NCBI GenBank assembly: GCA_973895155.1
Contig: OZ316896.1
Span: forward strand, 2,294,001 to 2,358,000
From: Marsupella aquatica
Lineage: Eukaryota > Plantae > Marchantiophyta
Reading direction: 5' to 3'
DNA length: 64,000 bases
Shown: positions 3,587 through 53,886 of the stretch, in pieces
Numbering within the stretch: the first letter of the stretch is position 1
How the letters are laid out: every line of letters begins with the position of its first letter
Notes under the pieces: model-generated
What the model was told of the DNA's origin: nothing
The model's input: the letters and a program-made list of their open reading frames with translations, nothing else
The model's database searches: none
Made by a program: the position numbers and the translations under genes

Positions 3587-3599
3587 CGTCCAGATTTGA

Positions 3600-9156: not shown

Positions 9157-9160
9157 GGAT

Positions 9161-26558: not shown

Positions 26559-29500
26559 CACTAGTAGAAACCGGGGCAATTTAGACCATACCTTATAGGA
26601 CTATGCCCACTAAGTCCTTTTTCCATACTTAAAACGACTCGCACCCATTGCACCGGTTTTGTTGAAGACTAGAAAAGACTATGAGAGTTTTATGGTTCAC
26701 TAAAAGACTATGAGAAGTAACCTTGCTACTTTGTGAAGGGTGAATAGTCTAGCACATCATGGGTAATGTTCACTCTATGTTGAGGAGGGGTAATTCTCCT
26801 TCATCTTTGAGCCGAAAGCACCGACGTCTATCGAGTGCCAAAGAACTGCTGGAGATCGAGCGAATTCACACTCTTAGATGTGGGTCGTGTCAAATTGTTT
26901 CCTCCATTGATGGCAGCCTTCTGTGAGATTGATTTATACTGTGTGGCTATCTGGGAGTTTTGTCGACTCATTTGACACCGATACTCCCGTGATTTCCTCA
27001 TACATAGTGCCACTGCCCCCCCACATTGTGTTCAATCCCTATAGCTTATAGCTGCACCACTCTTGGTGGCCCTTGCTCATGCCTTGGTTTTTTTTTCTTT
27101 TTCCCATTACAGTATACACCCCCTTCTTACTAATCAGGTGGATTAATTTAGTACTAGACAATGCTTTGACACTTTACACTTACACTATGCTGACCTACTG
27201 CGCCTTCTAGTGCTTATTCCCTAGTTGTTACTTGTTGCATGGACCACTAGAAGAACGGCTTCGCAATCTTTGCCTGATCTGATGACCCTGGTTGAGTAAC
27301 TCTTTGTTATTGCCTCCTTTGGGTGTTGAGGTTTTATGATGCCATTTGGCCTACTGGTTCCCCCATCCGTGGGGTTCACGCGGAATAAATGTAAAATTTC
27401 AAACAAAAAAATAAATCTATAAAGAGGGTGATAGCAAGGGGCATAACTCATTAAATGTCCTTATTTGTGACCAAAAAGGTTTTGGGTTTAATGAAGTGGG
27501 GTTCATGGAGGTTGGACCATGGAGGGATGGTCAAGATATTCTTGGCCATTACTAAATCCATCTATAAAAGGTCAAGATGCACAAAGGTAGATTTGTACCG
27601 GTCCTTTTTCATACATTAGAGCTAGGTCACATTCTTGCACCGGGAATATTGCATTTTAGGACCGGATATAATGTTGGGCAACCTTAATCCTGATTACGGC
27701 GTGCAATAAAATGTCACTACCGACCATGTATGTGCAAATATGACCATTCATTGCCTAAGTTGGCCATGCAGTAACACTTTGTAGCTTTGTCCCACTTTGG
27801 GTGACACTCAACGGCTCACTCAAACGGTAAGGCTGAGTGGCTTCCCCTAATTCGGTTTCAGGCACTAAACTTCACTTTGGGAGTCTCTTTGGAGTTTTCG
27901 CCATTGTCATTGAACTTAGAACGTGAGGGGTGGAGTGTTCGGGGTTTTACGTAGGGTTTTCCTTTCAGTGTTGCCCACTTTTTGTGACCATTGCGGAGTG
28001 AACTTCCCGCGCGTTATGTGCTTGTTTATGCTCTCGAGGAGCAGTGTTCAGGCAGTTGCAGTGATCTAACCTTGCGCTTGCAGTCTACTCATAGACCTGC
28101 ATTCCTGCTCGATCTCCTTTAGGGACATTTAGTTTTTGGCTGGTAGGGCGAAGAAGGTTGTGGCTGCTGCAACGTTCGTGAGGAGCTTGTCGGAGTTTGA
28201 GGAGTCGGAGGTTGGGGTTTCTTCAAGGTTTTGGGTGACAATCTCGGTCACAGTTGTGGTATAGACCCTTTTGCTGCACCCATAACGAGCATCGGGAGGC
28301 CGTGAGGCTCATTGGGAGGTCCTTCAGTTGTCAAGCTGCCGTTGAGCTGGTGAAGTTGCATGCGGGTTGCATCTGTTCTGCGGACACAGTCAATGTGGGA
28401 ATCCATATTTTCATAGTGCTTGTTCTTGCAAACTGGGAGCCGAGAGTTTGGAGTCGGGAGCTAAGAAGGGTATTGTTAGGCTTCAATTACTCTGTGGTTT
28501 TCTCCAGCTCCATGGTACAGTTTCAATGTTAATGCTTTGTCCTTGTGCTGGTCTAGGTAGCGCGAGCTTCTACCTATTGCGCCCTCTTGCTGTAAGCGTA
28601 TTGAGCTGCCAACTGAGTGATTCATACCTGTAGCTGCTTACGCGTGATCAAGAGATTGAACAAATGCCTAGTGCTGTCCAGCAGGAGAAAACTCTTTTTG
28701 GTCACGATCGGGCGTTGGAATATAACTAAGTGCGGCAGAGCAACACGGGGAGCTGTAGAGTTGCAGACAAGACGCAACTACAGAGGAGGCATTGGGAAGG
28801 ACACAACGGTGCGGTGAAGGTACAAGGACCGTGGACCCTAACTTGTTTGCTGCCTTGGGAGGATCCGGAGAGCCCGAGGCGACATGCTTCATTGAGCCTG
28901 AGCTAGCTGAATCCAATCCAGGAGTTGTTGCGCTAAGGTGAGACTTTGAGTTTAGGGTTGCTTCAGTGTCCGAGTAGGTTTTCTCTTTGCGTCGGCAGCT
29001 AGAAGGTAAGCTCGGGGGCTTTACAAAGGGTTAGTGTTGCGGACTTTCCCTCCTGGACGTTGTGTGTCTTCATTTGCAACTTGTTTGTGGACCTGTGATC
29101 CTGAGACTGTCAAAATTGTTGTGGCCGCACTGACAACTTGATGACGCGTTTTGTGGATGCACCGTTAGTAATCGCGAGTACAGCTCTCCAACAATTGCAC
29201 TTACCATTTTTGACCACCTTGCATGATGTCCATCCGTGGGCTGGACCCCAAGAAGTAGATTTCGGTAGATTTTGGTAGATTTTGTCTCTGCCCCCGGTCC
29301 TCATTTTGTGCAATGTCCACCTGGCACTTGGTTCTTGATCCCTACATTATCGTCTGCCGCTCGGCTGCTTGCGGAAGGGATCAAACAGATTGGAGGTGCT
29401 TGGTCTTTTCATTTTGAGTGTCAGAGTTTAGGAGGACAGCTTGCACCATCGCCGACAAGAATGACCTGCTTGCAGAACAAGAGGGACGAGCATGAGCTGC

Positions 29501-30953
29501 TTGCAGAATAGGAGATTGACCGCGAGCACGAGCTGCTTGAAAAATAGGAGACTGAGGGCAACCTGCTTCTTTGTTGCTACTCTGGTTGCGCTGCTACATT
29601 GGTTGTTGATCTTCACCCACCCACTTGCCTACTCAATTGACAGAGTACAGCTTTGTCTCTGCGTCTGTTATTGCTGTCTTTGTCCCTCCCCTTGAAATTG
29701 TGGGCCTTAAAAGGTCAGTAAGTTGGCTTATGTAGTTTTTATGTCCCTCCGCTATGTCAATGCGTGTTTCATTGCATCAGGGCATCAGTCGCTGTTTGCC
29801 TATAACCGGACTGTTCATTCTCTGTCCACTCATTTGATGTAATTCTTCCCATTGCCGCCCAATGCTATGGCGCCCATGCTACAATTTGTGGTTTTTGTCT
29901 AAGCACAAATCCTCTCTGTGCCTGGTCTCTGTGTCCCGTCATTGGGATTGATTGTGTAGACGTTTCCTCTTCTCCCAGTCCTTGTCATCCACCAGCCAAA
30001 GCACATTGGATTGTTTTCAAAGGAGGGCTGTGTAGTTTGGAGGGTTTGATCTATGCAGCGGATTTGAGCAGATTGGCGGTTGTTAGTTTCTTCTTGTAAA
30101 ACCTGTCTGTCTTTTCTGCTTTTGGCCATGCTCCTTCACTTCTTGCTGCAAGCTCAATGTGCTTCAGCTATGGCAATATTCACTTACCCTATCCCAACGG
30201 CACTACCGTGAGCTGTAGGACAGCCAACAGAAGCAGATTGTATCGATTGCATGTAAGTCAGGGTATTTTATGTATTGCGGAACAACTATCCAAGTTTGCT
30301 GCAATGGCCGGTCTTGCGCAGCTGAATGAGCCAATTTCATTTTCCCTGTGCACTTCTATTTCTCAAAGAATTCCTTGGTCATGCTCATTTCCCCCAGAGT
30401 TAGAAAACAAAGAAGAAGAGCTGACTAATTGTAATTCCAATCCATATCCTGATCGGTCAAGGATTGTTCACTACATTGGCCTTGTCATTGGCCGAGGTCA
30501 CCAAATTTTGCTTGGTTTCATTCCTGTGGAGCACTGCTGTGATGGATTTGTCGTAGCATTCTGCAAACTCTCACGGTTTGCTTATGGCCATTATTTGCAA
30601 TTTGCTGCTACTAATATGTCTTCTTCTGAGCAGCATACACCAGAAGTAAGCAATAGTGGAGGTTTAACTGCACATCAACACATCTAGTGAACTACCTCTC
30701 TGTTGCTCACTGGAGGGTGAGACTTTCACTCTTTCTGGATATTGTAGTTTGTAAGCAAGTTGATTAGGAGTGTTTCATGCTATGTTTACACTGTGACCCC
30801 TAGCTGGAACCAATGGAATGACACAGTGAGTGGGAACTGATAATTTAAGGTTGGTTGCTGTTGGTGAGGCAAGTACAGCTCCTGCTCACCTTGCTGATCG
30901 AAGGTGCTTATCAGAGGACGTGAACACACGACATCTCCACAAAAGCAACACTT

Positions 30954-31403
30954 ATGGTGAGGACCCGCAACGCTGAACATGTGCGGCTTGCACGCAAGGC
31001 AGAGATGTTGCGCCTTGAGTATGTCAGACTTGGGATCCTTCCAGCCCAGTCTGCATGGTACTTTGAGTACCCAATTGTTGCCAGGAACAACTACAGCCGG
31101 CCTGTACCTGCTTCTCCACCCTTCCCAACATCCTTGGTATTTCTTTCTCTCATACATGACCCGCCACAAATTAGGGCCCAAGGGTGTGTGCACAGTTGCC
31201 AATATGACTGTCCTGCCTGTAGGGCTTCTGGCCTAGAGTTGGATGATCGTTCTCTTGGATGTCGGTTTTTTCACAGAGCACAATGTATCATCTGGAACCA
31301 CTCGCCATCCTGCAGTGTGCCTGGCGATGTCACTTGTCCTGCCCTCCCAGACCCCACCACCGGTCACTTTGGTGTTTACACATGTTTGGATCACACGCTC
31401 TAG
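30954..31403 (+). CDS. 149-aa Cys/His-rich protein of unknown function (CACTA A cargo)
   Basis: Same-length ORF retained in element B (54646-55095), with 12 aa differences. Confidence 0.5.
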   Translation: MVRTRNAEHVRLARKAEMLRLEYVRLGILPAQSAWYFEYPIVARNNYSRPVPASPPFPTSLVFLSLIHDPPQIRAQGCVHSCQYDCPACRASGLELDDRSLGCRFFHRAQCIIWNHSPSCSVPGDVTCPALPDPTTGHFGVYTCLDHTL

Positions 31404-32072
31404 AGGACCACTTGTCACACCGCATGCACAAACCAAAGACCATTGACCTATAACTTAACACTTTGACTTGAACAGAGAGGATATTTACTTAAGATTTTGA
31501 ATTATGACCAATTTTGGGTCCAGGGTTTAGGGTCAACAGTACATAACTTATCCTATTATGGCTGCACTAAGTACAATATCCTAATTTAAGAGGCTAGCAA
31601 GCTCACTTAAAAGTCTCCTTTCAAAGACTGGAATTAATGGGCCATGTGATAACCTGGAAAAAGTGATTTCTGCCTAACTTATTTGTCTCATTCACTATCA
31701 TAGCCTATTTAGGATGTATAAATTACAACCCTGATCACAGTGCTTGATACCAATCCTGTTCAAAAAATGCTTGTTTTACATGTCACGACTGTTATATGTG
31801 ATTCAAATGCATTAAATCTTGTTGCAGATCTCCTTTGGTGAATCATAGCCACAAAATTGAGGTGTAGGTGGAGCTATTGTACGAGGGGATCAGTTTTTAG
31901 TGTGGGCTCAACAAACCAAAAAGTATGTCTACTCTGCACATGTGTGTGAACATTTCATTGCAGTAGCAATTGCCACTCTAGTCTATATGCTACACTGTAC
32001 TTTTTGTACACTGCACTAAATTATATTGTCCGTGCACTCTGCTAAATTGTACTATCTGTCTCATGCGTAGGC

Positions 32073-32753
32073 ATGGCACGCCCTAAAATCCGAGCCAAGA
32101 AGCGGGGGACAGAGGTGAGCAACACAGGTGTAGTTGGGCCAGATGGTAGTAACTTCTCCGCAAGTCAGATTTTCCAGAAGGCAGCTCATTGTTGTGCCAT
32201 TTGTGACGATGGTGGTGGCTTAGCCATATGTGAGGGCCCTTGCATGAGGCATTTCCACCTCAACTCGGAGTCTGACCTTGCTGCAGAAAACAACTGTCCA
32301 GGGGTGGGCCTCCCGTCAGCACACCAGGGAGGCTGGATGTGCACTGATTGTTTGGAGAAGCAGGCTAAGTGTGCACAGTGTGGGAAATTGGGGTCTTATG
32401 AGGGCTCTGTTGATGCTCCACCACTTGTTAGGAAATGCCCTGACAGATATTGTGTGAGGTTCTTTTGTTTTTCATGTTTGCCCGATCTTGCCACAGCTTG
32501 CCCACTTCATAAGTGCAAGGCATGTGGTCAGCACGATGAAGATTTCTGGGTGGACATAGTCCACTGTGTTAGGTGTCCCACCATGTGGCACTTTCATTGT
32601 TTGAAGGAGCGTCAAGCAGAAGGCTATGCTTGTGACAGACACATCTATGATCACTCTGCACATGGTGTTGATCGATGGATCTTCTATTGTCATCGCCATG
32701 CCATAGATCCTACTTTGCACACTCCCATGAGAGATCACATTTCTTGGCTTTGA
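32073..32753 (+). CDS. EDM2/NSD-like multi-PHD finger protein (226 aa)
   Basis: CAICDDGG.L.ICEGPCMRHFH, WMCTDC..CAQCGKLGS, CPLHKCKAC, CVRCPTMWHFHCL and FYCHRHAIDP..TPMRDHI. Confidence 0.8.
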   Translation: MARPKIRAKKRGTEVSNTGVVGPDGSNFSASQIFQKAAHCCAICDDGGGLAICEGPCMRHFHLNSESDLAAENNCPGVGLPSAHQGGWMCTDCLEKQAKCAQCGKLGSYEGSVDAPPLVRKCPDRYCVRFFCFSCLPDLATACPLHKCKACGQHDEDFWVDIVHCVRCPTMWHFHCLKERQAEGYACDRHIYDHSAHGVDRWIFYCHRHAIDPTLHTPMRDHISWL

Positions 32754-33351
32754 ACCTGAATAATATACATGCATAGTGCACCTGATGTGGATACCTTGGA
32801 GATTGCAGACATTCCAATTTTGAGAAGAAGGACCTCTGTAGGAGAGGATGCTTAGGCAACAAGTACCCTAAGTTCATTACTTGTTCCTGGGTACATGCCT
32901 TCAAAAACTGCCCTTAAGCCTTCTAGGAACTTTTTTAACTCTGCAATCATTTTGATCACGACTTACATGACACTGCTTAAATTAAATCAGGACTTCTCAT
33001 TATGAGCATATAAGTTACAAGGCTATTTAATTTGCGAGAATTCCCTTAAAGTGTACCAACATTTTGTATTCTCATTGAATGTCTGCCCATTTACAACATC
33101 TGTATGTGGCATCACAAAACAATTGCACTTGTCACCTTCAATATTGTGAAGGCACATATTCAAACTATGAGGTGCATGCTTGCAGGTGTCTAGTACGTTT
33201 GTCCCAATATTTCTCCCGTTTGGAATCGGAGCAGAGACTCACCAGACGACTGGACTGGACCAAGTTATAAACGCAGCATTTTAAGGGCCCTCCGATTATC
33301 AGGTGAACGCATTATCTTCCGGTCTGCAGTGATTAGGTGGCCCGTGTGTAC

Positions 33352-34200
33352 ATGGCCTCTAGAAAACGTACAAAGGTTGACCACCCGCCTCTGTTGGCTG
33401 GAATCAAAGCCATTTTGATTCCTGGCCACTATGGGTTCACCCAAGTGAGTTGGCCAATCGTACAAAAACGATTCTCAGAGTTCCATGGGACTGAAGTCAA
33501 GGACATCACTCCACAGACTACACATGTTGTTGCGGGGACATGGCTGGATGTGATGAACAAGTGGTCATGGTCCTTCATTGATTCTGACATTACCAACCAA
33601 GGTCTAAAAGTAGTTGAAGTCTCTTGGCTGACCGATTCTGTTAAACATAGGTGTGTACAGAGTACTGAGCAATATGAGTTGTGGGAGAGTGAGGAGGCCA
33701 CTGCAGAGGCTTTGGCTGAAAAGGAAGCCTATGAAGCAGCGGCAGAGAAACCCAACTTTGCTTCTGTCCAATATGGACCTGTTGTCAACATAGGACACCA
33801 TCCTATGCGTGCAGATGCTATATTGAATGAGCATGGCAAGGAGAGAAATACCATTATGAAGGGGTTCAGTGTGGTATTTGCAGAAGAAGGAATTGGGGAG
33901 ACTAAGTGCAGACTGTACAAGTCTATAGTTGTTGAGCTAGGTGGGACAGTGGAGGAGAGTCTAACAGAAACCTCCACTCATGTTGTAGGTCTGTCATACA
34001 TGAAAATATGCAGAAAATTCTTTAAGACAATAGTGCGTGATTTTGTCATGAACAACAATCTTTGGGTGCTTTCCCCTGATTGGCTTCTGGAATCAGCAGC
34101 TAGAGGGAAGCGACAGAATGCTTGGGACTTTGATATTTTTGAGGCCTGGCCCTCCAAGATTCAGCGGAGATGTATGCTTAGCAAAGGTGGGAGAGAGTGA
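33352..34200 (+). CDS. Tandem BRCT-domain protein
   Basis: Two repeats: FHGTEV..TTHVVA..VVEVSWLTDSV and LGGTVEE..STHVVG..VLSPDWLLESA. Confidence 0.85.
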   Translation: MASRKRTKVDHPPLLAGIKAILIPGHYGFTQVSWPIVQKRFSEFHGTEVKDITPQTTHVVAGTWLDVMNKWSWSFIDSDITNQGLKVVEVSWLTDSVKHRCVQSTEQYELWESEEATAEALAEKEAYEAAAEKPNFASVQYGPVVNIGHHPMRADAILNEHGKERNTIMKGFSVVFAEEGIGETKCRLYKSIVVELGGTVEESLTETSTHVVGLSYMKICRKFFKTIVRDFVMNNNLWVLSPDWLLESAARGKRQNAWDFDIFEAWPSKIQRRCMLSKGGRE

Positions 34201-34340
34201 GGAGTAGGAGTCCCTCATATTTTTGTATAAAACACAATTTTGTAATAAATGTGATCCTTGAACTAACTCATCTTGTCATGGTTGGTCGCAGTTGAAGTGA
34301 TTGTTGTTTCCTGCTGCGTGGGGTGTGACTGTGAATCTAC

Positions 34341-34910
34341 TTGCTGGGCTCTGTTTGGCTGAAGACTTTGGTGGGTATGCTGCCTCTTCCAGACCGTCAG
34401 GCCCTATGTAGGGTCCTCCTACGGGTTGCATTGTGCATGGCTACTGCTTGGGCTTACTTGTGTGGATTGGTAACCAGACATAGTGTAGCTCCATCCGAGA
34501 TAATGCCTGCAGACCTTGGATGTGTTGTGAATGCTGTGGTGAATGAGGATGCACAGTCGGAAGAGGACATTTACTTTTCAGCAGATGAGTTAGACAAGCA
34601 CGATGCTGTAGGTGGTTCCTTGTTGCCTGATTTGGCAGATGATATAGTTCTTACACATGTCTGGCCAAGGGTTCTTGTGGTGTCTGGCGCACAAGATATC
34701 TGCAAATATAGACTAATTAGTACCCAGTGGAGGGACTTGGTAGCAACATGTGCACCATGGAGGGCACTGCTGCCACTGCTTGTAGGCACGGATCGAAGAC
34801 CACCATGGCATGAGCAGGGTTTAGACCTTGATGACTTAATGTACATGCCTGAGTACCTCAGGGCTGAGTGGCATCGACAACAGGATTGGTATCCGTATTT
34901 GATGTGGTAG
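34341..34910 (+). CDS. F-box-like protein (true start uncertain)
   Basis: LLPDLADDIVLTHVWPRV..KYRLISTQWRDLV. Confidence 0.55.
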   Translation: MLGSVWLKTLVGMLPLPDRQALCRVLLRVALCMATAWAYLCGLVTRHSVAPSEIMPADLGCVVNAVVNEDAQSEEDIYFSADELDKHDAVGGSLLPDLADDIVLTHVWPRVLVVSGAQDICKYRLISTQWRDLVATCAPWRALLPLLVGTDRRPPWHEQGLDLDDLMYMPEYLRAEWHRQQDWYPYLMW

Positions 34911-35236
34911 TAAGATGAGGACATCTTACACTGGTCTCGCACCTGGCACCTGTGTCTATGACTATACATGATTGGACTCTGATATGGTCATGGATGTACG
35001 TGCAGAGGCAGTACATGTGAGGACAGCGGAGGAGTTGACACCCTCAAACATTTAGGAATTTTGTCTCATTCACTTGAGAATAGGTACATGACTCAGGCAC
35101 CTATATTTTTTGTTTTTTTGTTTTTTTGGAACGTTACGTATTTTGGCAAGTACAGTCGGGGGTGAAATCCTTAACAGGAAGTGTATTTTTCACTTGCATA
35201 ATAAAATGACAGGGTGCTGAGTGCGTGTGTATAGTG

Positions 35237-38200
35237 ATGGCTCCAAGGTTGCCTCTTCACAACCCATTTAGGATTAGGCATCATGATTCTAAATTGTGGA
35301 TGCGTGAACAAGCCCGGGCCGCCCAAGGTAGGAGTAGGAGGATGAGATGCCCATGCACACAGTGCCAAGGATTCAAGTCGTTGAGTTTGAACACTGTGCA
35401 CCTTCACCTGCTGCGGCATGAAAGGCACCCTCGGTGGAGGGTTTGGAATGTACCAGCAGAAGAAGACTCCTCTGATGAAGAGTGGAGAGCTGACTTTGTG
35501 GATTCTAATACAGCTAGGCGTAGAGACTACGTAGAGCAGGACATAGACTGTGCAGAGGATGGTCCTGGGGTCCAACATGAGAACGTGGATGACCAAGATG
35601 GAGATGCAGAGGCAGTCACTGAGGACGGTGGGATGGATGTCCCAAGAATGGTTCAAGAGATTTTTGAAGACCTTGATGCTTTTTACGACACAGTGGAATC
35701 AGAAGAGGACAATGAACCGCAGCCACACATTGGCGACGGCCAAGCTCAACCTGACTTTGACATTGGGGAAGGTGCAGCAGAGAGGGAGTGGGTGTTTGGG
35801 GGCCCAAAACACATCAAAGAAGCTTGCATTCCTATCTACAAGGGGTCGAACTGCTCCAAGCTGGGTTTTGTCGTGTTGTTGTTGAACATCTGTGGCAATC
35901 ACAATGTTCCCAATATATTTGTGACAGAGTTGTTGACCTTCCTACGCCGAAATGTGTTACCAGATGGTAATTCAATTCCAAAAAATATGTACGAGGCTAG
36001 GAAATTGATGTCTAACCTTGGGCTGAACTATGTGTCTATTGACGCATGCCCTGATGGGTGTGTTCTCTTTCGCAAAGAGCATGCAGATAAATTGACATGC
36101 CCTCATTGTGGTAAGCACAGGTACAAGAATGTAGGGAAATGTACACACCCTGCCAAGGTTCTTCGTCATTTTCCTCTCATTCCTAGACTACAACGTCTGT
36201 TTAGATGCCCTGCCATTTCCAAGCTGATGACATGGACTCCTGATAACAAGAGCAGTGATGGCCTGCAGCGTCACATTGGAGATTCCAACCATTGGAAATT
36301 TGTTGATGAGAGGTGGCCACAGTTTGCTGCAGAGAAGCGGAACTTTCGATTTGGTCTATCACTGGATGGAGTAAACCCATTTGGAGACAAAAACAACCGT
36401 TATTCATGTTGGCCGGTTACGCTGCTAAATTACAACCTTCCCCCATGGATGACTACAAAGAGGTTTTTTGTCATGATGGTGCTGTTAATCCCTGGACCAG
36501 CTTCTGTGACCAAGCAATTCATAGATATCATGTTGGCTCCAGCAGTGGAAGAGTGGAAGACTTTGTGGATAGAAGGGGTGTTAACCCATGATGTTCTGAA
36601 GGGGCTTCTTCGACCCAGCCCCTTTAGACTGCATGCAATTTGTTTGCTGGATATAGCAGATTACCCAGGCCATGGCATCATATCTGGACGAGTGACAAAG
36701 GGCTATGTGGGGTGCACACCATGTGGGAAAAATGTGACAAGTGAGTGGTCGCATGCCCTGCACAGTATGAAATTTCAGGGGCATAGAAGGTATCTGCCTG
36801 TTGATCATCCTTACAGGCACACACGGTCTCAAATTGCACACTTCAACAACAAAACAGAGCTTCGTGGCCCACCACAGAGGGTCACCAGAGAGCAAGTCCT
36901 GAGGTGGGCAGCCAGGAAGGCTGATTGGGACAAGAGAAGTGCCACTGATCGAGAACCTAAGGATCCAGTGGTGAAACACGGTGTGAAAAGACAGACCTTG
37001 ATGGACTTGGAGTTGGAGTACTGGAGGGTAATGTACTTAGCCTCCAGCCCCTGTATGATTGCAATTTTAGATTGGAGCAATGGTGGATTGATGTTGGTTA
37101 CAATCCTCCTATGTGGTTAATTAGTGTTTCTGTTGTTGAATTCTTTGCTTTGTGGAGTGCAGGAATTCGAGCCCAGCAAACACAATGTGGACGTCATGCA
37201 CATTGAGAAAAATATTTGTGAGAGCTTGCTGAAGTTCTTGTCGGGTGAGAAAGATACAGGAGCAGTTCGAGCTGATATGCAACAGAAGGGGATTCGCCCT
37301 CACCTTTGGTTGAAGCCCCATGCAAGCAATCCCAATGTACTTCTCAAGTTCCAAGCTCCCTATGTGTGCACACAGGATGAATGGAAGACATTCTTGTATA
37401 GATTGAGCTGTCTGAAAGTGCCCTCTGGCTATGCTGGTGCCTTCAAGAAGCATATTACAAAGAATAAACTTGGCAGTATGAAAACACATGACTACCATGT
37501 GTTGATGCAGCACATTCTGCCCCTATGCCTCAGAGGTCTCATGCAGAAACCAGTCCGTAATGTCATTCTTTGACTGTGCAATGTATTTCGCCGTATATGT
37601 GTGAAAGTGTGGGATCCCCAAGGATTGGAGCAGTTGAAGCAGGATGCTGCTTATGTCCTCTGTGACTTGGAGATATACTTCCCCCCTGCTTTCTTTGATG
37701 TTATGACTCATCTCCTAATCCATGTGGTAGAAGAGCTAGGGCAGTATGAGCCAGTCAGTACCAGATGGATGTACCCTATGGAGCGATACATGAAGTTGTT
37801 GAAAGGTCATGTGAGAACATACTACAGGCCAGAGGCTTCCATGGCATTGGGGTACATTAAGGATGAGACGTTGGGATTCCTAACAGAGTACATGGCTGGG
37901 TATGGTGAAGCTATGACAAGAGTTTGGAAATCTGGTGAAGATGATGGAGTGAGTGGCGAGGTTGTTGAAGGTGTGGGACGTGCTGTTCAGCTGCCTGTTG
38001 CGATTCGAGACAAGGCTCATTCATATGTGCTGGCAAACACAGAGCCTATGCAACCATGATGGAGGTGAGTGATTGAATTGACTTGCCTTTGTTGTGATGC
38101 TTCTTGTCTGTTCCAAGGGTGATCTTAGGTTGTCATGTGTTGTTTAGACCTAACTATGCCTGTACCTCATAATGCAGGGAATATGATATGCAAAAAGCTG

Positions 38201-38937
38201 CACACTCTGGGCAGCAGGATCCCTTCCCACAGTTCGAGCAGTGGATTCGGGTGACAATTCGAGAGCATAGTAGACATCACCCAGATATGGAGAAGGATTT
38301 GTATCTTCTATCTGTGCCACCACGATTGTCTATTCTGACCTACAAACGGATGAGAGCTTATGGAAATCATTATCGAGTGAGGGATGAGCAGGGTGACCAT
38401 TGTGTATCATATGATTGTGGTTTGATTTCTGTGTTTGAGCAGAGAACCTCTGAAGAACAGAGGGGGTGGATGAAGATGGGTTACGTGGGGGAGTTGACCG
38501 ACATTTGGGTGTTGAATTATGGTAACACAAGTGTCCCAGTGATATTGATGAAGGGATCATGGGTGAAATCAGAGTGGCAGAGACCAAGGGCCACCATGAA
38601 GCGTGATCATGATGGGTTCTTGTTGGCCAATTTTAGGTCCAGAGTACCAGAATGGTCTGAGCCTTTTGTTTTCCCTAGCCAAGTTGAACAGGCTTTCTTT
38701 GCAGATGTGGAGGAGTCACATGGCTGGAGGGTGGTATGCCATAGCCAAGCACGGAACAGGCGGATGGATGGAAGTAAAGTAGAGTTCAGTTTGGATGACC
38801 ATGCTGCATTCGAGCATCCTAGTCATGAGACTGTACTTCCAACTCGGGCAGGGACTGACTACATCCCCTTAACATTGAGAGAGACATATGATGAACCTGG
38901 ACAAATGGAATATGATGAGGTTGATGATTTGCAATAG
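35237..38937 (+). pseudogene. CACTA TnpD transposase (3 exons) with premature stops
   Basis: CPCTQC, IDACPDGCVLF, LRHFPLIPRLQRLF, GLSLDGVNPF, YNLPPW, DVMHIEKNI, FPPAFFDVMTHL, RWMYPMERYM and EPFVFPSQVEQAFF; introns ~37028-37162 and ~38065-38177; in-frame TGA at 37571 and 38057. Confidence 0.93.
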
Positions 38938-39114
38938 GCAACAGCTGGCGATTGGCAAGTATGAGGTTGAGGATGACTACCTGCACAGAGTCACATAACG
39001 GGAATTGCTGCCTGGAATGATGTTTAGGATAGTTGGATATGCATGAAATTGATTGATACTTTGAATTTAGTGTGCTGATTCTCCCTGTTTGGTTGTGGGT
39101 GCTGTGCAGAAGCG

Positions 39115-42100
39115 ATGGGGGAAGAGGGTGATGACACGGAGACAGACATGGGGCTTGGAGAGTGGGGTGAAGAGGAAAGATTGGATATGGATGGAGACCC
39201 AGATGCAGGGGGCTCACAAAAAAATGCACCTGTGCAAGATGCACAGGGCCCTCATCAAGTCCCAGGTAGGTGGGCAGCTAGAGAGAAATCACATAATCCA
39301 TACCCTAGAAGGAGCCAGAGTTATTGGCAAGGGACGCCTGATAATTATGATGATGACTATGATGGAGCAGAAGATGGATGGGATGAATATGAACACCCAG
39401 AGCGTGGTAGAGACGGGTACAGAGGGCAATGGAAAGGTGAGGAGGATGATTGGACAAGTAAGTGCCTTGTGCTAGTGATTTTGTGATGGTAGTAGAGATT
39501 TAGCTCAATATGCACTTATCTGATGTGTAGCTAGGGCAAAGAGTTTATCTTACAGGTCCATGAGTGTGGCATGTACCTGTTGGTATGCAGACTCTGATTG
39601 GGACAATCACGAAAACAACAAAGGCCATCCACATTCAGATAGGAGGCAATCATTCACAGGCGGGAGAAACGCCCCTAATTCATCAAGACAAAGCAATAGG
39701 ACAGGTGGTCCAGAACCATCTATGCGCCAAGGGAGAGGTAACTTGGTCATTGCAGAATTGCTTTGAAGTCCACTGTATATTTGGCAGCGGGATTTATGAT
39801 TCATACTTACCTAATGTAAGTGACTGTAAATGGATCCTGTAAATGTGCAGGGACTCCAGGGAGGTTTGGACAATGCAATCCAGGCCGTGGGGGGAGATCA
39901 GGCCGTGGAGGGACCCCAGGCCGTGGGGGGACACCAGGCCGTGGAGGGACACCTAGTAGCGCTTCAGGGAGTACCAAGGCAGGAGACAGTAACAAATTTG
40001 GTAAAGTAGAAGTGAATTCCGAAGGTTGGATAACTCCCACATGTGATGGTAAGAACCGTTGGCATTCTGACCTAAGAGGAGAAGTATTGCGTTGGTTAGA
40101 TTTGAGCATTACAGAGTTTAGGAGTCAGAACAAAGCTGATTGGGCTGCTATCTGCAAGGACATTCTTGAACGGTGGGAGTATGTTGGTAATGATGGTAAG
40201 GGCCCAGTTGAAGATTGCATATCAGATTATGCAATGAGGATTTTGAAACAAGAGAGGCATAGGTTGAAAAGGATGTGGATAGACAATGGTTCTAACAGGA
40301 GAATGCCACCACCCCCATCATTGGAACTGGATCAATGGACACGGTTAATCAAAGGGTTCATGTCGGAGGCTGGACAGAGCAAGAGTGAACTGATGTCAAA
40401 TGCTCGAGGCAAAGTGAAACACCTTTCACAGGCTGGGAGAGGAAGTTATGCTCCAGTGAAAGAACAATTGGTAAGGCAGTGACATGCCTGATAGTAAGCC
40501 TCAAACTTATCATCTTGCTACCATTATTACATTTTCATTGACAATCAACACTTGGTTTCATTCATATGTATGTTGATGTGGACTGCAGAAGAAATTGACA
40601 GGTGAAGAACCATCAGCACAAGAAGTGAGAGAGGAGTTCATGAAACAAAGGAGTGAGGTGACAAGTGTAACTTCCAAACAGGTGATTATGTTGTAATTCT
40701 GTATGTTCTGTGACTATTTGGCCTTGAGCATCAGAAAGAAATGTAGTAGGAAGTAAGCAACCAGTTCTTGGGGACAGTTATCTGAGATATGTAAGCTGTG
40801 TTATGACAGGGAACTGTTACAACTCTCACAAAGATGTGTGAACGGTTGAAGTCATTAGAGTGTGGACTCCCTCGAGTGGAAAGTAAATTGGCTGATCGTT
40901 TGGATATTGTGGAGGCATCTGTAGCGAACCTTCTTGCATCAGTGGAATCTAATTTCAAGCTTGTGATTGAAAAATTGGGTGGTTCCCAACCAAACAATGA
41001 GGGCAACATTGTACAAAGTGTGCCCTTGTTAACAAAAAAGGGAATTGGCAAATCTGACACAGGTATGGAAATGACACCGGCCCATTGTTCATTGTGTCCT
41101 ATGTTCAAATGTTAGAAGTAAGTTTTCATGAATTGAGTGAATGGTTTGAATGCAGGAAGAGTGGAGGCAGAGAAGGACCCTGTAATCAGTAAGCAGAAGG
41201 GCAAGAAGGTTGCTGAGACAGGTAACCTGCTATGATCCAATACATTACATTTGAAAAGTGCATGGAGTTTTGTGAAGCTTAAGCCGGTTGGAGGTAATCT
41301 TTTCTGTAAGAACTGGTTGGATGAACTGGGATCTGAAGTGACATCATGATTGATGTATCAGGTGATTCAAAGAGCAATAATGAAGAAGATGTGCCCAGTG
41401 CCTCAGTGACCATAGCCAAGGAGGTATCAGGTAAGCTGATGCTTTAAATTCCTCTATATGAATGTTGAGCAACAATTCAGTGGTTAATAGATTCAACCTG
41501 AATATTGTGGTGTGTTTATTGATCAACAGAAGCAGACATGGAGCATATGGCAATGGCAAAGAAGGGGAAGAAGGCTGTTCATAATGGTAAGGAGATAGTG
41601 ACAACTTTGTGGTTGGTGACATGTACATTTAGCACATGTGATGAGTGATTGACTTATGTTGGACATGACACTGAATTGTAGTTGATGCAGAGTTGACAGA
41701 CTCTCAACCAAGTGGGAGTAGGGTGAAGCGACGTCGAAACTTGGGAGCAACATTGGATGCAAGTAAGATTGTAGATGCTTCAATTGAAGCAAGTACAATG
41801 TTGGCAGATACTGAGATGATGTCGCAGGGAAATCCTGCTACACAATCAGAAGTGTCAAATATGGATGCAGATTCTTTGAAGAAGAGTGTAGCCAATTCTC
41901 GATCACCAGCACAAAACACTCGTGCCAAAGTCATGACTCGCAACCAAGGTATGAATAATGTCATGTATAAGCCACCCAAGAAAGCCAAGAAAAACAGCCA
42001 GGGTAAGGTGGAGGTGATAGCCACAGCAGAGCCAGTCCATAATCTTCTATCATGGGAGGATGACTCACAGGTATGTGTGGGTACAGGCATTTTGCGACCG

Positions 42101-42286
42101 GATCATGCAAAATTCCATGGCAAAGTGGTCCCGGATGACCATGTAGTAGTGTTGTTGACTACAGTGATTGTATCTGATTGTAATTTGCCATTTCCGAATA
42201 GAGACGATGATCCACCTCAGGAAATAATTGCAGATGCAGTAGGATCTCTTGTGCTCTGGCCATCAGAGTGTGTTAGTCTGCAGTGA
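39115..42286 (+). CDS. CACTA TnpA-like multi-exon gene (exon boundaries approximate)
   Basis: Many short GT-AG exons; Ptta/EnSpm-like block QWTRLIKGFMSEAGQSKSELMSNAR..AGRGSY; C-terminal FHGKVVP..LPFPN..AVGSLVLWP. Confidence 0.7.
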
Positions 42287-42859
42287 CTGAATGCAAGTGT
42301 AGATAGCATCATGTGAATTGTGTCACATTTTGACATTGCCTTGGAAAGATCCAAGAAATATCTGTACCAATTTTTCCATTTGGTAAAGAGGATGAAGGAG
42401 ACGTTGTGTGTGACATTGATATTTCTGAATTCTGTATGTATGAAACAAGTGATTGATGTCAAACTATGGCTCTATGGTGATTGTCTATGATACTTGAATC
42501 TATTTTATCATTTCAGTATTAGTGTGTATGGTATAGAGGAATACTTTGTGACCTTCTTTGTAGTCTATGAAGTTTGAATCTGTGAATTCATATTAGTGTA
42601 CATGGTATAGAAGATGGCTTTCTGAAACTATGTATTCTAATGTTAACATGATGAATGGTGAACTTATAGAGTGAGTTCATTCCAAGTACACAATAAAACA
42701 TGAATGCAATATGTTATTTGTGCACAAGAGTGGGTTCATTCCAAGTAGTATAGTGGGGTCTTCATCACTCATATCCAGTTGACATAAAAGACTTATACAT
42801 ACCCCACAAAGTATATTTAAAGACTACCCTCCATAACCTTTTTAGCACTAGAAGAATCC

Positions 42860-43220
42860 GAGGTGAACTGAGACCGCAATATATGACTCATTTTGGCTCA
42901 TGTGACTTCATTGTGACTCAACGTGACTTGACCCACGCTGTGACCCTTGGAGTTGCAAAAGTTGAGACCAAAAAATGGAAGTCACTATTGATACTGGGCT
43001 TTGCAACTTGCTTGATACCCATTTGTGACTGATCTGTGACTTTATTGTGGAGTCTAGCCTTGTTTCGACGTGACTGCAATATGACTTCAGCGAGTCACAT
43101 CGTAAGTCACATACATGACTTACCCGCATTCAACAACGACTAGCGTGTGACTATTTAGTGTCACAGGAGAGACCAATGGAGACCCTGGCCCGCGTCACAC
43201 AACAGAACCATTTGGGACTC
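42860..43220. repeat. Subterminal repeats of CACTA B (GTGACT/AGTCAC/GAGACC motifs in both orientations)
   Basis: Dense short motif cluster next to the TIR, typical of TnpA-binding subterminal regions. Confidence 0.7.
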
Positions 43221-43700
43221 TATATACTCATGTTTATAACTAATAAGGTTCACATGCAAGTTATAACCATGACTAATGAACACAGAGGGACAGTTCATAA
43301 GAAGAGAGAGCACTCGACATTACAATACATAGAAACCTGATGTTCTAACTTTAGAAATATAACACATTGAATACAAGAAATGAACATAGCATGAATGACA
43401 TCCACATGAAACAAAGCATCATATAAGCAGATCCTACATAAAACATTCATAAGAATTAAACACAATCACAATCTTGCTAAAAAATGAAGATCATTTGAAT
43501 TCCAATGGAATAGTTTACAATGTGATCAATGTAATTTAGACAAAACAGGAACTCATAATTGATGACTGTAGGATGAGATAACTGAAAGCACATGCATGAT
43601 ACTATGAATCTCCAAGAGGACATGATTCTTGTACTGTTTCTTGACATCTAAAATCTACATAACATGACTCACACTACAAACAAATAATGGCATGACATTG

Positions 43701-46700
43701 TTATGGATCCTCTATGAACTTGCTTGGCCATAATACCAAAGAACCTGCAGCATCTCCAAGTGTCTTTTGAGGAGGATCATCATTTGTGTTTGGAATGGGA
43801 AGGACAGCTTTAGGTTTCACTAGTAATGTGACTAACACTACTGAATAACCTGGGGGAATCCTCTTGCCATGGAACGTTGTGGAACCAACCTGCACTCTGG
43901 CAAATCCTACTCGTGTTCCACTCTCATCAACAGCTAACAAGCCACTTTGTCCCTCAGCATTAGGTGCTTTCCCCACTTCCACCTTAGATCTTTCTGCCAG
44001 CACTGTTCTTGGAGGTTTGTATGAAACCTTTGACGTGGCTCTGCTCCCACCAGCAGACTTGCTTCGTGTGCGCATGCTTCCTCTCTTCACAGTAGTGAAG
44101 CTAGGCTCAGTAGGTTCCTCTGTTAGGACTGTCACAGTAGCAGGTTCATCACCTGGGAGTGTCATACCAACTAACTCTTTGGTTGGATTTATCTCAACAA
44201 GAGGCACACCTGTCATTGAGAATGATACATTCTGCAAATCATTTATCTCTGCAATGGAGTCAAGATCTACATAGCATGAATCTGGCTCAATGGTATCATT
44301 GTCATGCTTGCTGATATCCTCATTTGCCCCAACATTGATATCATCCACTCCCTTGCCAATGTCATCCTCATCCAAACATGGTTGACTGCCCTCTGTCAAA
44401 CAAGTTGCTTGTACAGACTGCAACTTTGTTGCCTCTAAATTACAGCGAGTATTTGCCAGGTTCTCATACTTCTTCTCTGTAGCACCTGTCTTATTCTCTA
44501 TGGACACAACAACCACAATATATGTTACTGAAAATAACACATTCAACAAACAATGTCAATTCAAACTATACATTTAATAATCATATCCCACACAGTTGTA
44601 AAGGCCTTACCTTCAAGCCTACATGTCGTTGGCATGCCAGAAGAGTGCATCGACTTTGCCACCTCAAGTGGTGATGGTGGAACTCCTGCAGAATTGGAAT
44701 CAATTTTATCTCTCACCGACACAACAGCTTCCATTAATGTCTTGAAGTTCACATGGAACAAGTCAGTCAATGAATTCAAACGTTCATTGATCTCTGGAAG
44801 ACATGTTTCGACAGCCTTCAAACGACCACTTATCTCTGTAAGTGAAGATCCACCTCCCTACATGACACAGGGGTATAGGTTCAATCACTCCATATGAAAT
44901 GTTGGGCAATATATGCACAATCAATGTTATATACAGTGTACACCTGAAATTCAACGCAGGTCATTCAATTACCAATCAGAACTCATATAACTTACATGCT
45001 TGGAGGATTCAGATGCACCCTCTTGAGCCCGGGTGTTCACAATTTCAGCCCTCAACTCTTCTTTTGAAGGGCTTTGCCCCAATTGGGCTTTCTGCACATG
45101 CATGGCAAACACAAGTTATCGATCAATATTCAGGGAACGTACACTAAAAAACAAAGTTTACATGTAGGGACAGTACACTAAAAAATAGTACATAGTGTAG
45201 CATAAATTACATAGCTAGGCCATTCATTCTTACCAAACGTTTAGCTGTCGGTGCAGTGCCGGTCCTTCCTGTCAGATTAGGGTTCTGAACACTCAACCTG
45301 GCCTCGGTCATCTGTGAACTCTTCTTTTTTGAAGCATCTGTTACAAAATAAGCTACTAACCTTGCCCACACTTTATCATCACAACTGGCTGGTGGAGGCA
45401 TATCTGGCTTCTCCCCACCTTCCTTCCAAGCCTTATGCATTCTCCACCTCTCTTGCTTGATAATTTTACCTGCTGTACTCTCTAGGCAACCTATGTCCAC
45501 GCCATCATCACTGCCCACATAATTCCATTTGGCAGCAACATTTTCACATACAGTCTTCCAATCTTTTGGATGCTGTTTTTTAAAATTAATAACACTCACA
45601 TCTAACCAACGCAATACTTCAGCTTTCAAATCAGCATGCCATCGGTTCTTGCGAGGACACTCAGCATCCACCCATTGTCTCTCATTCAACTTTACGTTCC
45701 CTTTCTTTGTCACCTCCCCTCGTGCACTGCTCTCGGTAGTACTGGGCGTTGTATTGGCCACCCCTTCATTCACCCTACCTGGGGTTCTGAAGCCACCTGG
45801 GAAAATACAATGCCATTCATGCTTGAGAACTACATATAGCAGAATGGATGACGGCAACATTCAATGCTTCACTTCAAGAAAAATTCTTCAAACATACATA
45901 CCTGTAGCTCTGCCTGTAGATGCCTGTGCAGGGACTGCACTCTGAAATTGTTGCGACCCTGGACCACCTGTCCAGCCTAGTACAGGGGCCGGATGATGTC
46001 ACTTTCTAGGTATGTGTGTGCAAACATATGTACTGAAAACTAAGTACAAACTGTAGGAAAACAACTGAACATTCACCGACATACCTGTCCCCCTTCCGTG
46101 CTGCATCTGCATAGGGGCATTAGTGAATACTTGAGTCGATGGTTCGACTGTCCAACCTGCACACATACATTTTCTATCATTATACATGTGCAGAGTCCCC
46201 CCCACGTGAATGGACTCCACATATAATGAGTTCTTCCATTGCTGACAAGATCAGACATTACCTGCTCCTCTTCCAGCGTTTGTAGGTACTGAATTTTGAT
46301 ATCCCTGCCAATTACCTTCACCACCTTCCCAACCTTGTTCATTCCACGACCCACCACCATCCTCCCAACCTGGTTCAACCCATGTCTGTCCTTGTGGACA
46401 TTGGAACTGATCATTACTAGCATTTGCCCAATCAGGTTGGGCAGAATCTGCATGCAATGGCAGGTGGACAGAATTTCATGTTGTCTGAATCCAATACATC
46501 CCAAACAATGTCAAAAATTGATATGCAGTCTGAAATTCAGGAGTGCCATGCCTTCACAAAGAACTGGCATATAGATATATACTCACATCCCCACGGTTGA
46601 GGTGGACGTCCATACCCACGAGATTGTGGGTTTGGACCTGCTCTGCCTCTACCACGGGCATAACCTAGAGCTTGCCCCCTGCCATAGTATTGGGCACCAG

Positions 46701-47410
46701 CCTGGGATCTACCACTACTACCACCTCGCCAACCTTGATCAGAGGTCAGCCCCCCCTGCTGGTATGGTGCATGCACAGGCTTCGAAGGCAAAACAGAACT
46801 GGCAGGACGCTGCATCACATCACCAACTACAATGTCAGGAACTAAGCAAGGTACATATGTGTAGTACTGAATATATGAAACCTCTAAACAAGAGTTTTTA
46901 ACTCAAAACCTTGTTGGGAAAACTACTTACATGTTTCTTTTGGGGCTGCTCTGCAATGTATTCATCTTCATAACCCCCATCCTCATCCATTTCCTCTGGA
47001 AAATACTCATCATCTGCATCTTCTTGTCTAGTGTCTGCACCCACCTGTGCAGCATCAATGTCATCTCCACATTCTGCCATTGTAGGTACGACCTTCTTGC
47101 TCAACCTGTCACTCCGACGCACAGGCCCAGAGATAGTGCTGGTCACCCTTCTTGCGTACTCCTTTTGTTTCTTTGAAAATGCTGTGGCTCTGCGACATTC
47201 CAATATGAGAATACAGTCACAATTTCAGTGCCACATTGAACTATTCATGTCACACAAACTCAGCGGAGGGGTGTAGTTGAGAATCGTTCCCTTACAATTC
47301 AGCCACATCCTTTTCCAGATCCAGTTCTGCGATTTTGGCTTTCACGTATGCTCGTTGTTCCATAGCTTTCCTTTCATACTCACACATCTCTGTGTCACTC
47401 TGTTCCATCC
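43701..47410 (-). CDS. CACTA B TnpA-like multi-exon gene (boundaries approximate)
   Basis: KNRWHADLKAEVLRWLD..WARLVAYF..MTEAR; C-terminal FHGKRIP..LPIPN..DDPPQ..AAGSLVLWP; paralogous to 39115-42286. Confidence 0.7.
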
Positions 47411-47564
47411 TACTGGACCACAAAAACATGTCATCTATGGTCACCCCGTATAACACAATGCAACCACAATCACCAGGCATCCATCCATACATCTGTGTTG
47501 CTTCAGAATTACTTTATTACACATCCTTCCCCTCACTAATGTCTATGCAAACAATTCACATTAC

Positions 47565-50500: not shown

Positions 50501-51296
50501 TTGCCTCGTACATGTTCTTGGGCAAAATATTACCATCTGGTAGCACAGTTGTTCGCAAGAATGCCAACAACTCAGAAACCAAAACGTTGGGGACATTGTG
50601 GTTGCCGCAAATGTTCAGGAACATGATGACAAATCCCAGTTTAGAACATTTGCTACCGGGGTACAAAGACTTCCTGCCTTCCTGTATTTGCAGGGGAGAG
50701 CCAAACATCCCATCATGCCCAGGGGTTTCCTGCCCTATCTCAAACTCATCAAGAGGCTCTTCGACAGGGGGCACACTTGCATCTGCAGCCGTATCCTCTT
50801 CATTGTCCAGCCCATCATGAAATGCATCCAAGTCTTGGAAGATGTCTCTCACCATCTCTTCCACATGAATTCCTTCGTCACGTGGTGCTGCCTGAGCACC
50901 ATCCCGTTGGAGAGCTGACAACCCACAGAGACCAGCTACAACATTTTCAAATGCACCAGGCAGAACCTCACTTGCCCGTCTTGCAGCATTGGCAGCATCA
51001 AATTCTAACCTCCACTCCTCGTCGGAAGAATCTTCCTCTGCAGGATCATTCCAAACTCGATGTCGTGGATCTCTTCCATGAACCGCGATATGCCGCCAAA
51101 CCTCATTCAGACCCCTGGTACGGGATCCTTGGCAGATTGCACAAGGACATCTCATCCTACTGGCTCCTGAAAGTCTGGTTCGTAACCTTTCACGCTGCCA
51201 AAGCTTATTATCATGGCGTGATATCCTTGTGGGATGATGCAAAGGCAGTGCCTGTGCCCTGGGCTGGGTCTGGGGAGGGTGGTGACCAGGGTGCAT
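47565..51296 (-). CDS. CACTA B TnpD transposase, apparently intact (3 exons)
   Basis: ORFs 49392-51296, 48444-49355 and 47565-48443 carry all TnpD motifs; introns ~49350-49472 and ~48331-48447; no internal stops seen in exons. Confidence 0.9.
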
Positions 51297-51729
51297 TGTA
51301 ACAGGCTGGGAGCTCTGCAGTCATGGACAGCAGTGAACAAGGATGCCTAATGGTGGTATTTGTGTTCCATATATCCCTGACTGTATCTGCCAAAAGAGTT
51401 AACATAACGTGTACTAAATTCTCACAAACCCTAAACCACCCCAAAAGAAAAAAACAGGTTCGCAAGTAGTGTACCTATTGTCAAGTGAATGACACAAAAT
51501 TTCTAAATGTTGGAGGGTGTCACCACCTCCTCCGCTGTCCTCAAATGTACCGCCTCTGCATGTACGTTTACAGTGACACCCCCAGGCAGCAGGAAACAAC
51601 AATCCGCCAACAGTAAAATAAGCCCAACTGCCACCAACCATAACAAGGTACATTAGTTCAAAGATCACATTTATTTCAATGATCTGATTTATACAAAAAA
51701 ACTTGTGTCCAAACTGATGCTACTACTCC

Positions 51730-52602
51730 TCACTCTGATTCAGAATCGCTAATGACCCATTCCTCACTTGTTGTCTCATAGTCCTCTCTGTAAGGATCCT
51801 GACCCTTCCGTGGCCAGGCCTCAAAAAGATCATAGTCCATTGGGTTTTGACGCTTCCCAGCTGCTACTGATTCCACAAGCCAAGCATATGAAACCACAAA
51901 CACATTATGGGACATGACATAAAAGCGAATGTCTCCCTTCCCAAACTTGCGGCAGGCTTTGGGATATGACTTAGTAATGACATGAGTGGTGTCCTCTGTT
52001 ATATTCTCCTCCACTGTCCCACCTAGGTCAAGCACTGTGGACTTGTACACTTTGCACTTAACCTCTCCAATTCCCGCCTCCACAAATACCATGCTCAGCC
52101 CTTTCAGAATGGGGGTTGGTTGCTTCGTCTCCTCAGCCAACATACTCTTCAGCCTTGTAGAGCTCTGTCCTTTGTTGAGTACAGGTCCATATTGGAGATC
52201 AGCAAGCCGTGCCTTTGCTTCCCAGACTTCTTGTTCAGCCCAAGCTGATGCAGTAGCTTCTTCATCCTCCCACAACTCATATTGCTCAGTATCCTGTACA
52301 ATCTTATGTGCTATGGAATCTGTGATCCAAGAGGCCTCAACTACTTTTAGGCCTTGCTTAGTAATTGCAGAATTCATGTAGGACCATGACCACTTCTTTA
52401 TCACTGATAGCCATGTCCCTGCAACAACATGTGTAGTCTCTGGAGTGATGTCCTGAACTACAGTGCCATGGAGCTCAGAGAATCGTTTCTGTACAGTTGG
52501 CCAATGCACTTTGGTCAACCCATGCTGGCCATGGACCAAAATCGCTCTGACCCCTGTAAACACTGCTGGGTGGTCACACTTTCTACGTTTACCAGGCTCC
52601 AT
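51730..52602 (-). CDS. Tandem BRCT protein (CACTA B copy)
   Basis: Paralog of 33352-34200 with both BRCT repeats. Confidence 0.85.
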   Translation of the reverse strand: MEPGKRRKCDHPAVFTGVRAILVHGQHGLTKVHWPTVQKRFSELHGTVVQDITPETTHVVAGTWLSVIKKWSWSYMNSAITKQGLKVVEASWITDSIAHKIVQDTEQYELWEDEEATASAWAEQEVWEAKARLADLQYGPVLNKGQSSTRLKSMLAEETKQPTPILKGLSMVFVEAGIGEVKCKVYKSTVLDLGGTVEENITEDTTHVITKSYPKACRKFGKGDIRFYVMSHNVFVVSYAWLVESVAAGKRQNPMDYDLFEAWPRKGQDPYREDYETTSEEWVISDSESE

Positions 52603-53875: not shown

Positions 53876-53886
53876 GCCTGCGCATG

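Follow-up and report, generated by a model that had tools for sequence, protein, structure and literature searches.

In Arabidopsis, EDM2 is described as a protein with an N-terminal RFD, acidic regions and a C-terminal methyltransferase-like ELP domain (PMC7529245), whose PHD fingers bind H3K9me2 and other histone modifications according to reviews (PMC7472560, PMC4980392) and whose loss is reported to shift transposon silencing both ways (PMC3632883). In plants carrying Spm elements, copies activated by TnpA are reported to remain H3K9-methylated (bioRxiv 10.64898/2026.08.24.746577). Analysis of a window of 64,000 nucleotides of Marsupella aquatica DNA, meaning the whole stretch that was analysed, revealed two CACTA elements, E1 and E2, each of which carries a stand-alone EDM2-type cassette of three zinc fingers (the PHD ORF) together with other cargo genes (Table 1). 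The explanation favoured here, tentatively and with somewhat less than even confidence, is that the PHD ORF is a selected CACTA accessory gene, whose product would likely act as a chromatin decoy aiding expression of the element in a family-independent manner.

Both E1 and E2 are complete elements of the CACTA/EnSpm type with inverted-repeat termini, a 3-bp target-site duplication, a TnpD gene (Transposase_21), TnpA-like genes and subterminal repeats, which at the 3' end of E2 are of the GTGACT type. E2 is nested in the right subterminal region of E1, about 270 bp from its right end. Once E1 is removed, the frame of a RING-H2 finger reads through its flanks as an empty site, and this in-frame reading independently confirms the E1 ends; the gene split by E1 encodes a coiled coil plus RING-H2 (26181-26558 and 59909-60756, minus strand). 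The gene order ORF-A, PHD ORF, tandem-BRCT ORF, TnpD and TnpA is common to both elements, with an additional F-box-like ORF located 5' of TnpD in E1. A second copy of the latter was not found within the window, and it is possibly a fourth cargo gene of the decoy type. In the initial annotation the two PHD ORF copies were assigned to one CACTA family. However, E1 and E2 are two different CACTA families with common cargo: their 5' regions do not align, their subterminal repeats are unlike, and identity between them amounts to about 60% for TnpD and 35-39% for the TnpA pieces. Both elements (26559-59638) are depleted in CpG, with observed/expected ratios of 0.23-0.53, and have CHG ratios of about 1.0-1.3 as compared to 0.55 in the right flank; these ratios, calculated without control for composition effects, would fit CHG-methylation escape.

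Several further features were observed in the same window. An ORF at 1151-4781 (plus strand) contains an N6/N4 DNA methylase domain (E 5e-6) and is possibly a decayed mobile-element methyltransferase; stop-interrupted ORFs lie 5' of it, one of them with a GGNH motif that we take to resemble ParB-like domains. A cluster of DUF7869 ORFs at 6333-9217 (minus strand, E 8.5e-41) is probably another DNA transposon. Two long GC-rich ORFs of 986 and 686 aa with coiled-coil ends (9222-12182 and 22839-24899, plus strand) gave no Pfam match at cut-off, and a gag-like ORF, recognised by eye, is located on the opposite strand at 12107-13231 (minus). Pieces of a hAT-type transposase (DUF659) are found at 19053-22001 (plus strand) and a kinase-like ORF at 62630-63268 (minus strand).

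Table 1. Features of the two nested CACTA elements, in window coordinates.
Feature	Position	Strand	Remarks
CACTA element E1	26559..59908	+	16,554 bp without nested E2; termini CACTAG..., 18 bp identical; target-site duplication TGG; subterminal repeats with GACT core
86-bp island	30655..30740	+	shared with E2 55357-55442; terminal conserved splice-donor-like GTGAG
ORF-A, E1 copy	30954..31403	+	first cargo gene; 149-aa orphan; Cys/His-rich C-terminal half
Predicted 5' untranslated exon and intron	31828-31922 and 31923-32070	+	both conserved in E2
PHD ORF, E1 copy	32073..32753	+	stand-alone EDM2-type cassette, three Zn fingers, 226 aa; open frame ATG to TGA
H3-tail-like N-terminus, residues 2-11	32076..32105	+	P0001 (E1 copy) matches H3 at 1, 2, 4, 7, 9
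Tandem-BRCT ORF, E1 copy	33352..34200	+	282 aa
E1-only ORF	34335..34910	+	weak F-box-like motif around 34620; Pfam F-box match under the cut-off (E 0.09)
E1 TnpD transposase	35237..38937	+	predicted exons 35237-37027, 37163-38064, 38178-38937; two premature stops
E1 TnpA-like exons	39079..42286	+	bounds approximate
CACTA element E2	42846..59638	-	16,793 bp; target-site duplication TAG; other family than E1
E2 TnpA-like counterpart	about 43701-47000	-	Transposase_24 E 1.5e-4
E2 TnpD transposase	47565..51296	-	three predicted exons, intron positions as in E1; 1163 codons open
Tandem-BRCT ORF, E2 copy	51730-52602	-	290 aa
PHD ORF, E2 copy	53195..53875	-	86% identical to E1 copy; plus strand not open
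ORF-A, E2 copy	54646-55095	-	91% identical to E1 copy; best-conserved cargo gene

The intact 226-aa frame claimed for both elements in the initial annotation is confirmed, although the strand of the second copy, which was not given there, is the minus strand. The two copies differ at 71 nucleotides (37 third, 19 second and 15 first positions) and at 31 residues without a single indel, and they agree in all 24 predicted Zn ligands, which bears out the earlier remark that the ligands are conserved despite some 30 substitutions; the quoted motifs of the CAICD.GG..CEG.C.R.FH type are present as well. When 71 random substitutions were introduced in 20,000 simulations, the number of residue changes averaged 50.1 and never fell to 31 or below, and the open frame together with all ligands was preserved in 0.02%. 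A dN/dS near 1, which had been named as the signature of neutral capture, was not obtained, as the Nei-Gojobori value for 226 codons between the E1 and E2 copies is 0.26 (p 8e-8). A stricter test speaks less clearly for selection: with differences at 12 of 74 fourfold sites versus 19 of 226 second positions, p is only 0.076, and the comparison of second positions with the upstream spacer gave p 0.09. The PHD ORF is also unbroken in E1 despite the two stops in the TnpD of this element. By dN/dS, the simulations and the lack of indels, the PHD ORF copies are under purifying selection, and the gene is very probably functional for its element.

The ATG of the PHD ORF is preceded at a distance of 2 nt by a conserved acceptor AG, and the predicted upstream exon contains an in-frame stop in E1 and E2 alike. 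An in-frame fusion of the PHD ORF to this nearest upstream exon is thereby ruled out in both elements, so that translation likely begins at this ATG. The 86-bp island shared by the two elements is a candidate for a common leader exon, as suggested by its terminal donor-like sequence.

For the genes flanking the PHD ORF, Nei-Gojobori dN/dS values of 0.33 (p 0.003) and 0.58 (p 0.0008) were obtained with ORF-A and the BRCT ORF, respectively. Between E1 and E2 no indels are found in the PHD ORF or in ORF-A and two in-frame indels in the BRCT ORF, as compared to 8 and 14 in two flanking spacers. ORF-A had no match in Pfam and Atlas searches and its structure model has a pLDDT of 39; its M-V-R-T-R start resembles what we take to be the H3-like start of PAF15. 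For the BRCT ORF, no PDB sequence match was found at E 0.01. Divergence at synonymous sites between E1 and E2 is 0.15, 0.28 and 0.51 over the three cargo ORFs and 1.9 or saturated for TnpD. Since the cargo dS is far below that of TnpD, the block moved between families long after these had split, with E1 and E2 as the two parties or with a third family as the partner of either. Neither this exchange, nor the co-travelling BRCT and orphan ORFs, nor the H3-like N-terminus described below had been part of the initial annotation.

The relationship to the PHD cluster of EDM2 proposed in that annotation is upheld by BLASTP, with residues 41-225 aligning to positions 225-432 of the Arabidopsis protein (EDM2_ARATH) at 29% identity and E 2e-25. 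The match is confined to the PHD cassette, which it follows up to the very C-terminal end, and a displaced sixth PHD1 ligand as well as the closing YCxxH...TPxRDH are found in both the PHD ORF and EDM2. The NSD relationship was also seen: three NSD-type PHD models of Pfam fall on the PHD ORF, all under the curated cut-off, and NSD2 660-794 gave a weaker match than EDM2 (E 0.025). An AlphaFold2 model based on a 44-row alignment has a mean pLDDT of 88; its residues 1-21 are disordered and do not dock onto the fold. Foldseek retrieved only generic PHD/PZP matches (best E 1.8e-4, TM 0.21), and the best VIA fold match is the PHDvC5HCH of NSD2 (Z 5.0, rmsd 2.6, 75 aligned). No EDM2 chain is present among the PDB sequence matches, and no solved structure for the reading of H3K9me2 by EDM2 was found. 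The PHD ORF is indeed a stand-alone module, ending at the cassette and lacking both the RFD, which was matched in EDM2 itself by the domain search, and the methyltransferase-like ELP domain, so that partners supplied by the host would be required for it to act as EDM2 does in the ASI1-AIPP1-EDM2 complex.

A word search recovered six short relatives of 217-245 aa with 38-81% identity. A full HMMER search yielded 567 proteins at E 0.001, and the best 150 of these 567, which were inspected, comprise more short members followed by EDM2-like proteins from liverworts, from one lycophyte and from seed plants. The short family, delimited by eye and tree, contains 24 proteins, with fragments, cluster mates and both copies of the window counted among them, and its CACTA context is known for the two window copies only. 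Members of sufficient length form one clade (FastTree 0.956; SH-aLRT 85 with 11 rows and 97 with 8 rows), which appears to be located outside the EDM2 orthologue clade (support 87-89) with a polytomy at the base. Liverwort paralogues appeared as the nearest relatives in FastTree and in the first IQ-TREE run (support 80, with long branches intruding); without the longest rows this collapses into the polytomy, and hence no donor is named. The Zn ligands are preserved in the family down to 38% identity, while several other members are truncated or frameshifted. A separate stand-alone clade reaching down to such identity argues for an old, kept gene rather than neutral Pack-type cargo. Searches of the word index for longer forms returned no hit with the single protein and two distant proteins with the profile, blanks that reflect the index, since EDM2 proteins were found by full HMMER. 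In a metagenome scan, the 11 loci included no member of the short family, only EDM2-like transcripts that resemble grass sequences, together with unrelated PHD genes, and hence added no transposon context. As a separate observation, 38 IMG/VR contigs (L012-L049), many labelled GVMAG, contain H3-like genes whose residues 20-35 are divergent.

One of the structural features that sets this family apart is the remodelling of the predicted H3K4 site. An acid at positions -4 to -2 of the first PHD1 Cys is present in none of 23 family members versus 109 of 114 non-family proteins among the matches listed (114 of 136 non-family proteins had a flank readable by the pattern), and the mean number of D/E in the 12 residues before PHD1 is 1.1 in the family versus 4.8 in the others. 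In the alignment and in the AlphaFold2 model, this acidic flank is replaced by a family-specific helix. Mutations of Asp297 and Asp304 are reported to be among those causing the largest losses of H3 binding by AIRE PHD1 (PMC3471955). The PHD ORF has a His at the Asp297 position and D46 aligned with Asp304, with the PHD1 acids D46 and E54 retained. PHD2 differs from that of EDM2 by a His-to-Cys ligand and a deletion of about 19 residues. The cassette thus described appears to be folded and selected, with its H3K4 site probably remodelled, as judged from sequence and model.

These observations bear directly on the reading, held to be possible but rather unlikely, that the cassette still reads H3K9me2 tails and thereby blocks host readers or recruits host ASI1/AIPP1 to bring the long element transcripts to full length in heterochromatin, the basic N-terminus being a nuclear-import signal alone. 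Such a function would agree with the preservation of the whole EDM2 cassette to its exact C-terminal end, the two retained PHD1 acids, the binding attributed to EDM2 PHD fingers in the reviews cited above, the H3K9 methylation that persists on active Spm, and the size of the elements (16.5 kb, with several predicted introns). It is opposed by the loss of the PHD1 acid and acidic flank in all 23 members, the altered PHD2, the missing RFD and ELP domains and the position of the family outside the EDM2 orthologue clade. Because the PHD1 acid is lost throughout, EDM2-like histone reading by the cassette is doubtful on sequence comparison, and the retention of H3K9me2 reading assumed in the initial annotation is so far unsupported, which holds equally for a loss of this reading.

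The other distinctive part of the protein is its N-terminus. Initiator Met is removed before Ala, and the free N-terminus of H3 is recognised by PHD fingers. The likeness of the tail to H3 was noticed by eye and tested post hoc, and it is a partial match in register: P0001 has Lys for Arg at H3 position 8, and T3, Q5 and T6 are mostly unmatched in the family. The tail starts with the first Met in 11 family proteins, of which 9 have A1, 11 have R2, 10 have K4, 7 have A7 and 6 have K9. A match to H3 at four or more of 10 positions is seen in 9 of these 11, in 7 of 135 non-family N-termini and in 3 of 452 other Met starts of the window; as the family members are related, the tail counts are not independent. 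Shuffling each tail with its own residues gave p 0.0003-0.036 for the nine matching members and about 0.46 for the other two; if the first residue is excluded from shuffling, two of these nine values go up to 0.07 and 0.13. When six distant members are compared with P0001, 3-7 of 10 tail residues are identical as compared to 0-2 of 12-16 in the adjacent linker. Nine further members were scored with a chosen offset, so that the scores cover 20 of the 24. Of these 20 members, whose tail is readable, seven carry Thr at the Met position; Ala1 is also absent from six of the seven, and no free ARxK end would be formed there. A MAR start also occurs in 13 of 135 non-family relatives, and hence this start may be inherited and not evolved by the transposon. 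The basic character of the N-terminus may reflect nothing more than a signal for nuclear import. The H3 reference sequence was taken from PMC3022755 and fetched H3 genes.

In the favoured reading of the PHD protein as a chromatin decoy, the PHD ORF would be spliced onto the leader and translated from its own ATG, and removal of Met would leave a free Ala-Arg-x-Lys end. The K4 and K9 equivalents of this tail could then be bound or methylated by readers and writers of host H3, with EDM2, H3K9 methyltransferases and chromomethylases as candidate targets, so that the tail would compete with nucleosomes for them, while the folded cassette with its remodelled H3K4 pocket might serve as a docking body. 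Since the block moved between families with unlike subterminal repeats, it probably acts on proteins or chromatin in general, and it would do so alongside the sequence-specific TnpA. We infer both the direction and the target of this action. In its boldest form, which is unlikely, the cargo would constitute an exchangeable counter-silencing cassette, made up of EDM2-derived fingers, tandem BRCT, the orphan and sometimes an F-box, with a true H3 tail mimic that titrates H3K4/H3K9 readers and writers. If true, this would represent a transposon-encoded histone mimic and an anti-silencing system independent of the family.

Quite unlikely, too, is a purely transpositional role, in which the three cargo products, PHD, BRCT and orphan, would anchor the transpososome on particular chromatin and on repair factors, steering insertion into heterochromatin or helping repair with no effect on silencing. 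The PHD and chromodomains of retrotransposons have been linked to target choice (PMC6673714), a tandem BRCT co-travels with the PHD ORF, and E2 landed inside E1 in a transposon-dense region, although two insertions carry little information on target bias. The PHD ORF is, however, not fused to TnpD or TnpA, and the block was exchanged between elements differing as widely in both proteins as E1 and E2 do, which a specific interface would hinder.

It is improbable that the block is kept because the protein restrains the element encoding it or is of use to the host. Host EDM2 is reported to repress Mu1 and to favour COPIA4 (PMC3632883), and the direction of the effect hence cannot be read from homology; yet the presence of the gene in complete elements and its exchange between families fit a benefit to the element. 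Pack-CACTA elements are non-autonomous and contain recent, decaying host fragments, whereas the elements described here encode transposase, and their cargo has a dN/dS of 0.26 and 29% identity to EDM2. Neutral capture of a host exon is highly improbable, for although several other family members are broken and pseudogenisation is reported as the usual fate of captured genes (PMC13317346), broken copies are expected among dead transposons, and the low dN/dS, the 20,000 simulations, the ligands preserved down to 38% identity, the distance from EDM2 and the clade-specific motifs all stand against it.

Within the papers searched, literature treating CACTA, PHD and BRCT together was not found, and no transposon-encoded EDM2 cassette or histone mimic appeared in the titles and abstract beginnings of the matches listed. 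The main text of a survey of 962 Spm protein structures does not contain the word PHD (bioRxiv 10.64898/2026.08.24.746577); such ORFs may already be in its supplements or in Repbase. The PHD ORF is real and selected and, within the literature searched, apparently undescribed. As compared to EDM2, with 1297 aa including RFD, acidic and ELP domains, it has 226 aa and none of these, and it differs further by the lost PHD1 acid, the shorter PHD2 with its His-to-Cys change, the H3-like start and its location inside a transposon. NSD1/2/3 have the same three NSD-PHD Pfam models in the same order, below cut-off in the PHD ORF, but are more distant than EDM2, and the PHD ORF is without SET or PWWP. 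Short host EDM2-like paralogues of liverworts and grasses (P0019, P0021, P0023, P0031, P0062; P0033) also end soon after the cassette, several of them starting with MAR, and three short proteins, one of them grass-named, start with MARxK; they are placed in clades separate from the transposon family, P0033 with angiosperm EDM2. An M-A-R-x-K start was observed in P0033, P0041, P0059, L001 and L003 (one named Eleusine, a grass), all grouping with angiosperm EDM2, and such proteins possibly combined a stand-alone cassette with an H3-like start by convergence. As a small protein predicted to be well folded, the PHD ORF product could serve as a comparison for locating the residues with which EDM2 reads H3K9me2.

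VANC and KIU of VANDAL Mutator-like elements and TnpA of Spm are, like the PHD ORF, described as separate accessory genes of plant DNA transposons, KIU also with a captured host domain, Ulp1 (PMC13317346, bioRxiv 10.64898/2026.08.24.746577). However, VANC and TnpA are reported to recognise DNA motifs of their own family, whereas the PHD ORF is a captured chromatin module in which Pfam recognised no DNA-binding domain and whose carriers have different repeats; a captured heterochromatin-reading piece, selected and traded between families, would hence be a different strategy directed at chromatin proteins. In fungal DNA transposons, EnSpm among them, TET/JBP genes are likewise reported as epigenetic genes of host type that are located in complete elements and have been passed between transposon lineages (PMC12730594), but these encode an enzyme in fungi and the PHD ORF a non-catalytic module in a plant. 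Transposon-borne readers are also described in retroelements, namely PHD, chromodomain and MBD in CR1, Chlamydomonas Gypsy-7a, chromoviruses and CopiaMBD (PMC6673714, PMC9940879), where they are parts of larger proteins linked to integration, in contrast to the stand-alone three-finger cassette of a DNA transposon. Finally, viral and cellular histone mimics (PMC11738798; G9a, cited by title in PMC3022755) share with the PHD ORF a short motif like the H3 tail, which here would form the very N-terminus of a protein encoded by a transposon and span both K4 and K9; should the likeness of this putative tail reflect genuine mimicry of H3, a strategy so far familiar from viruses would extend to transposons.
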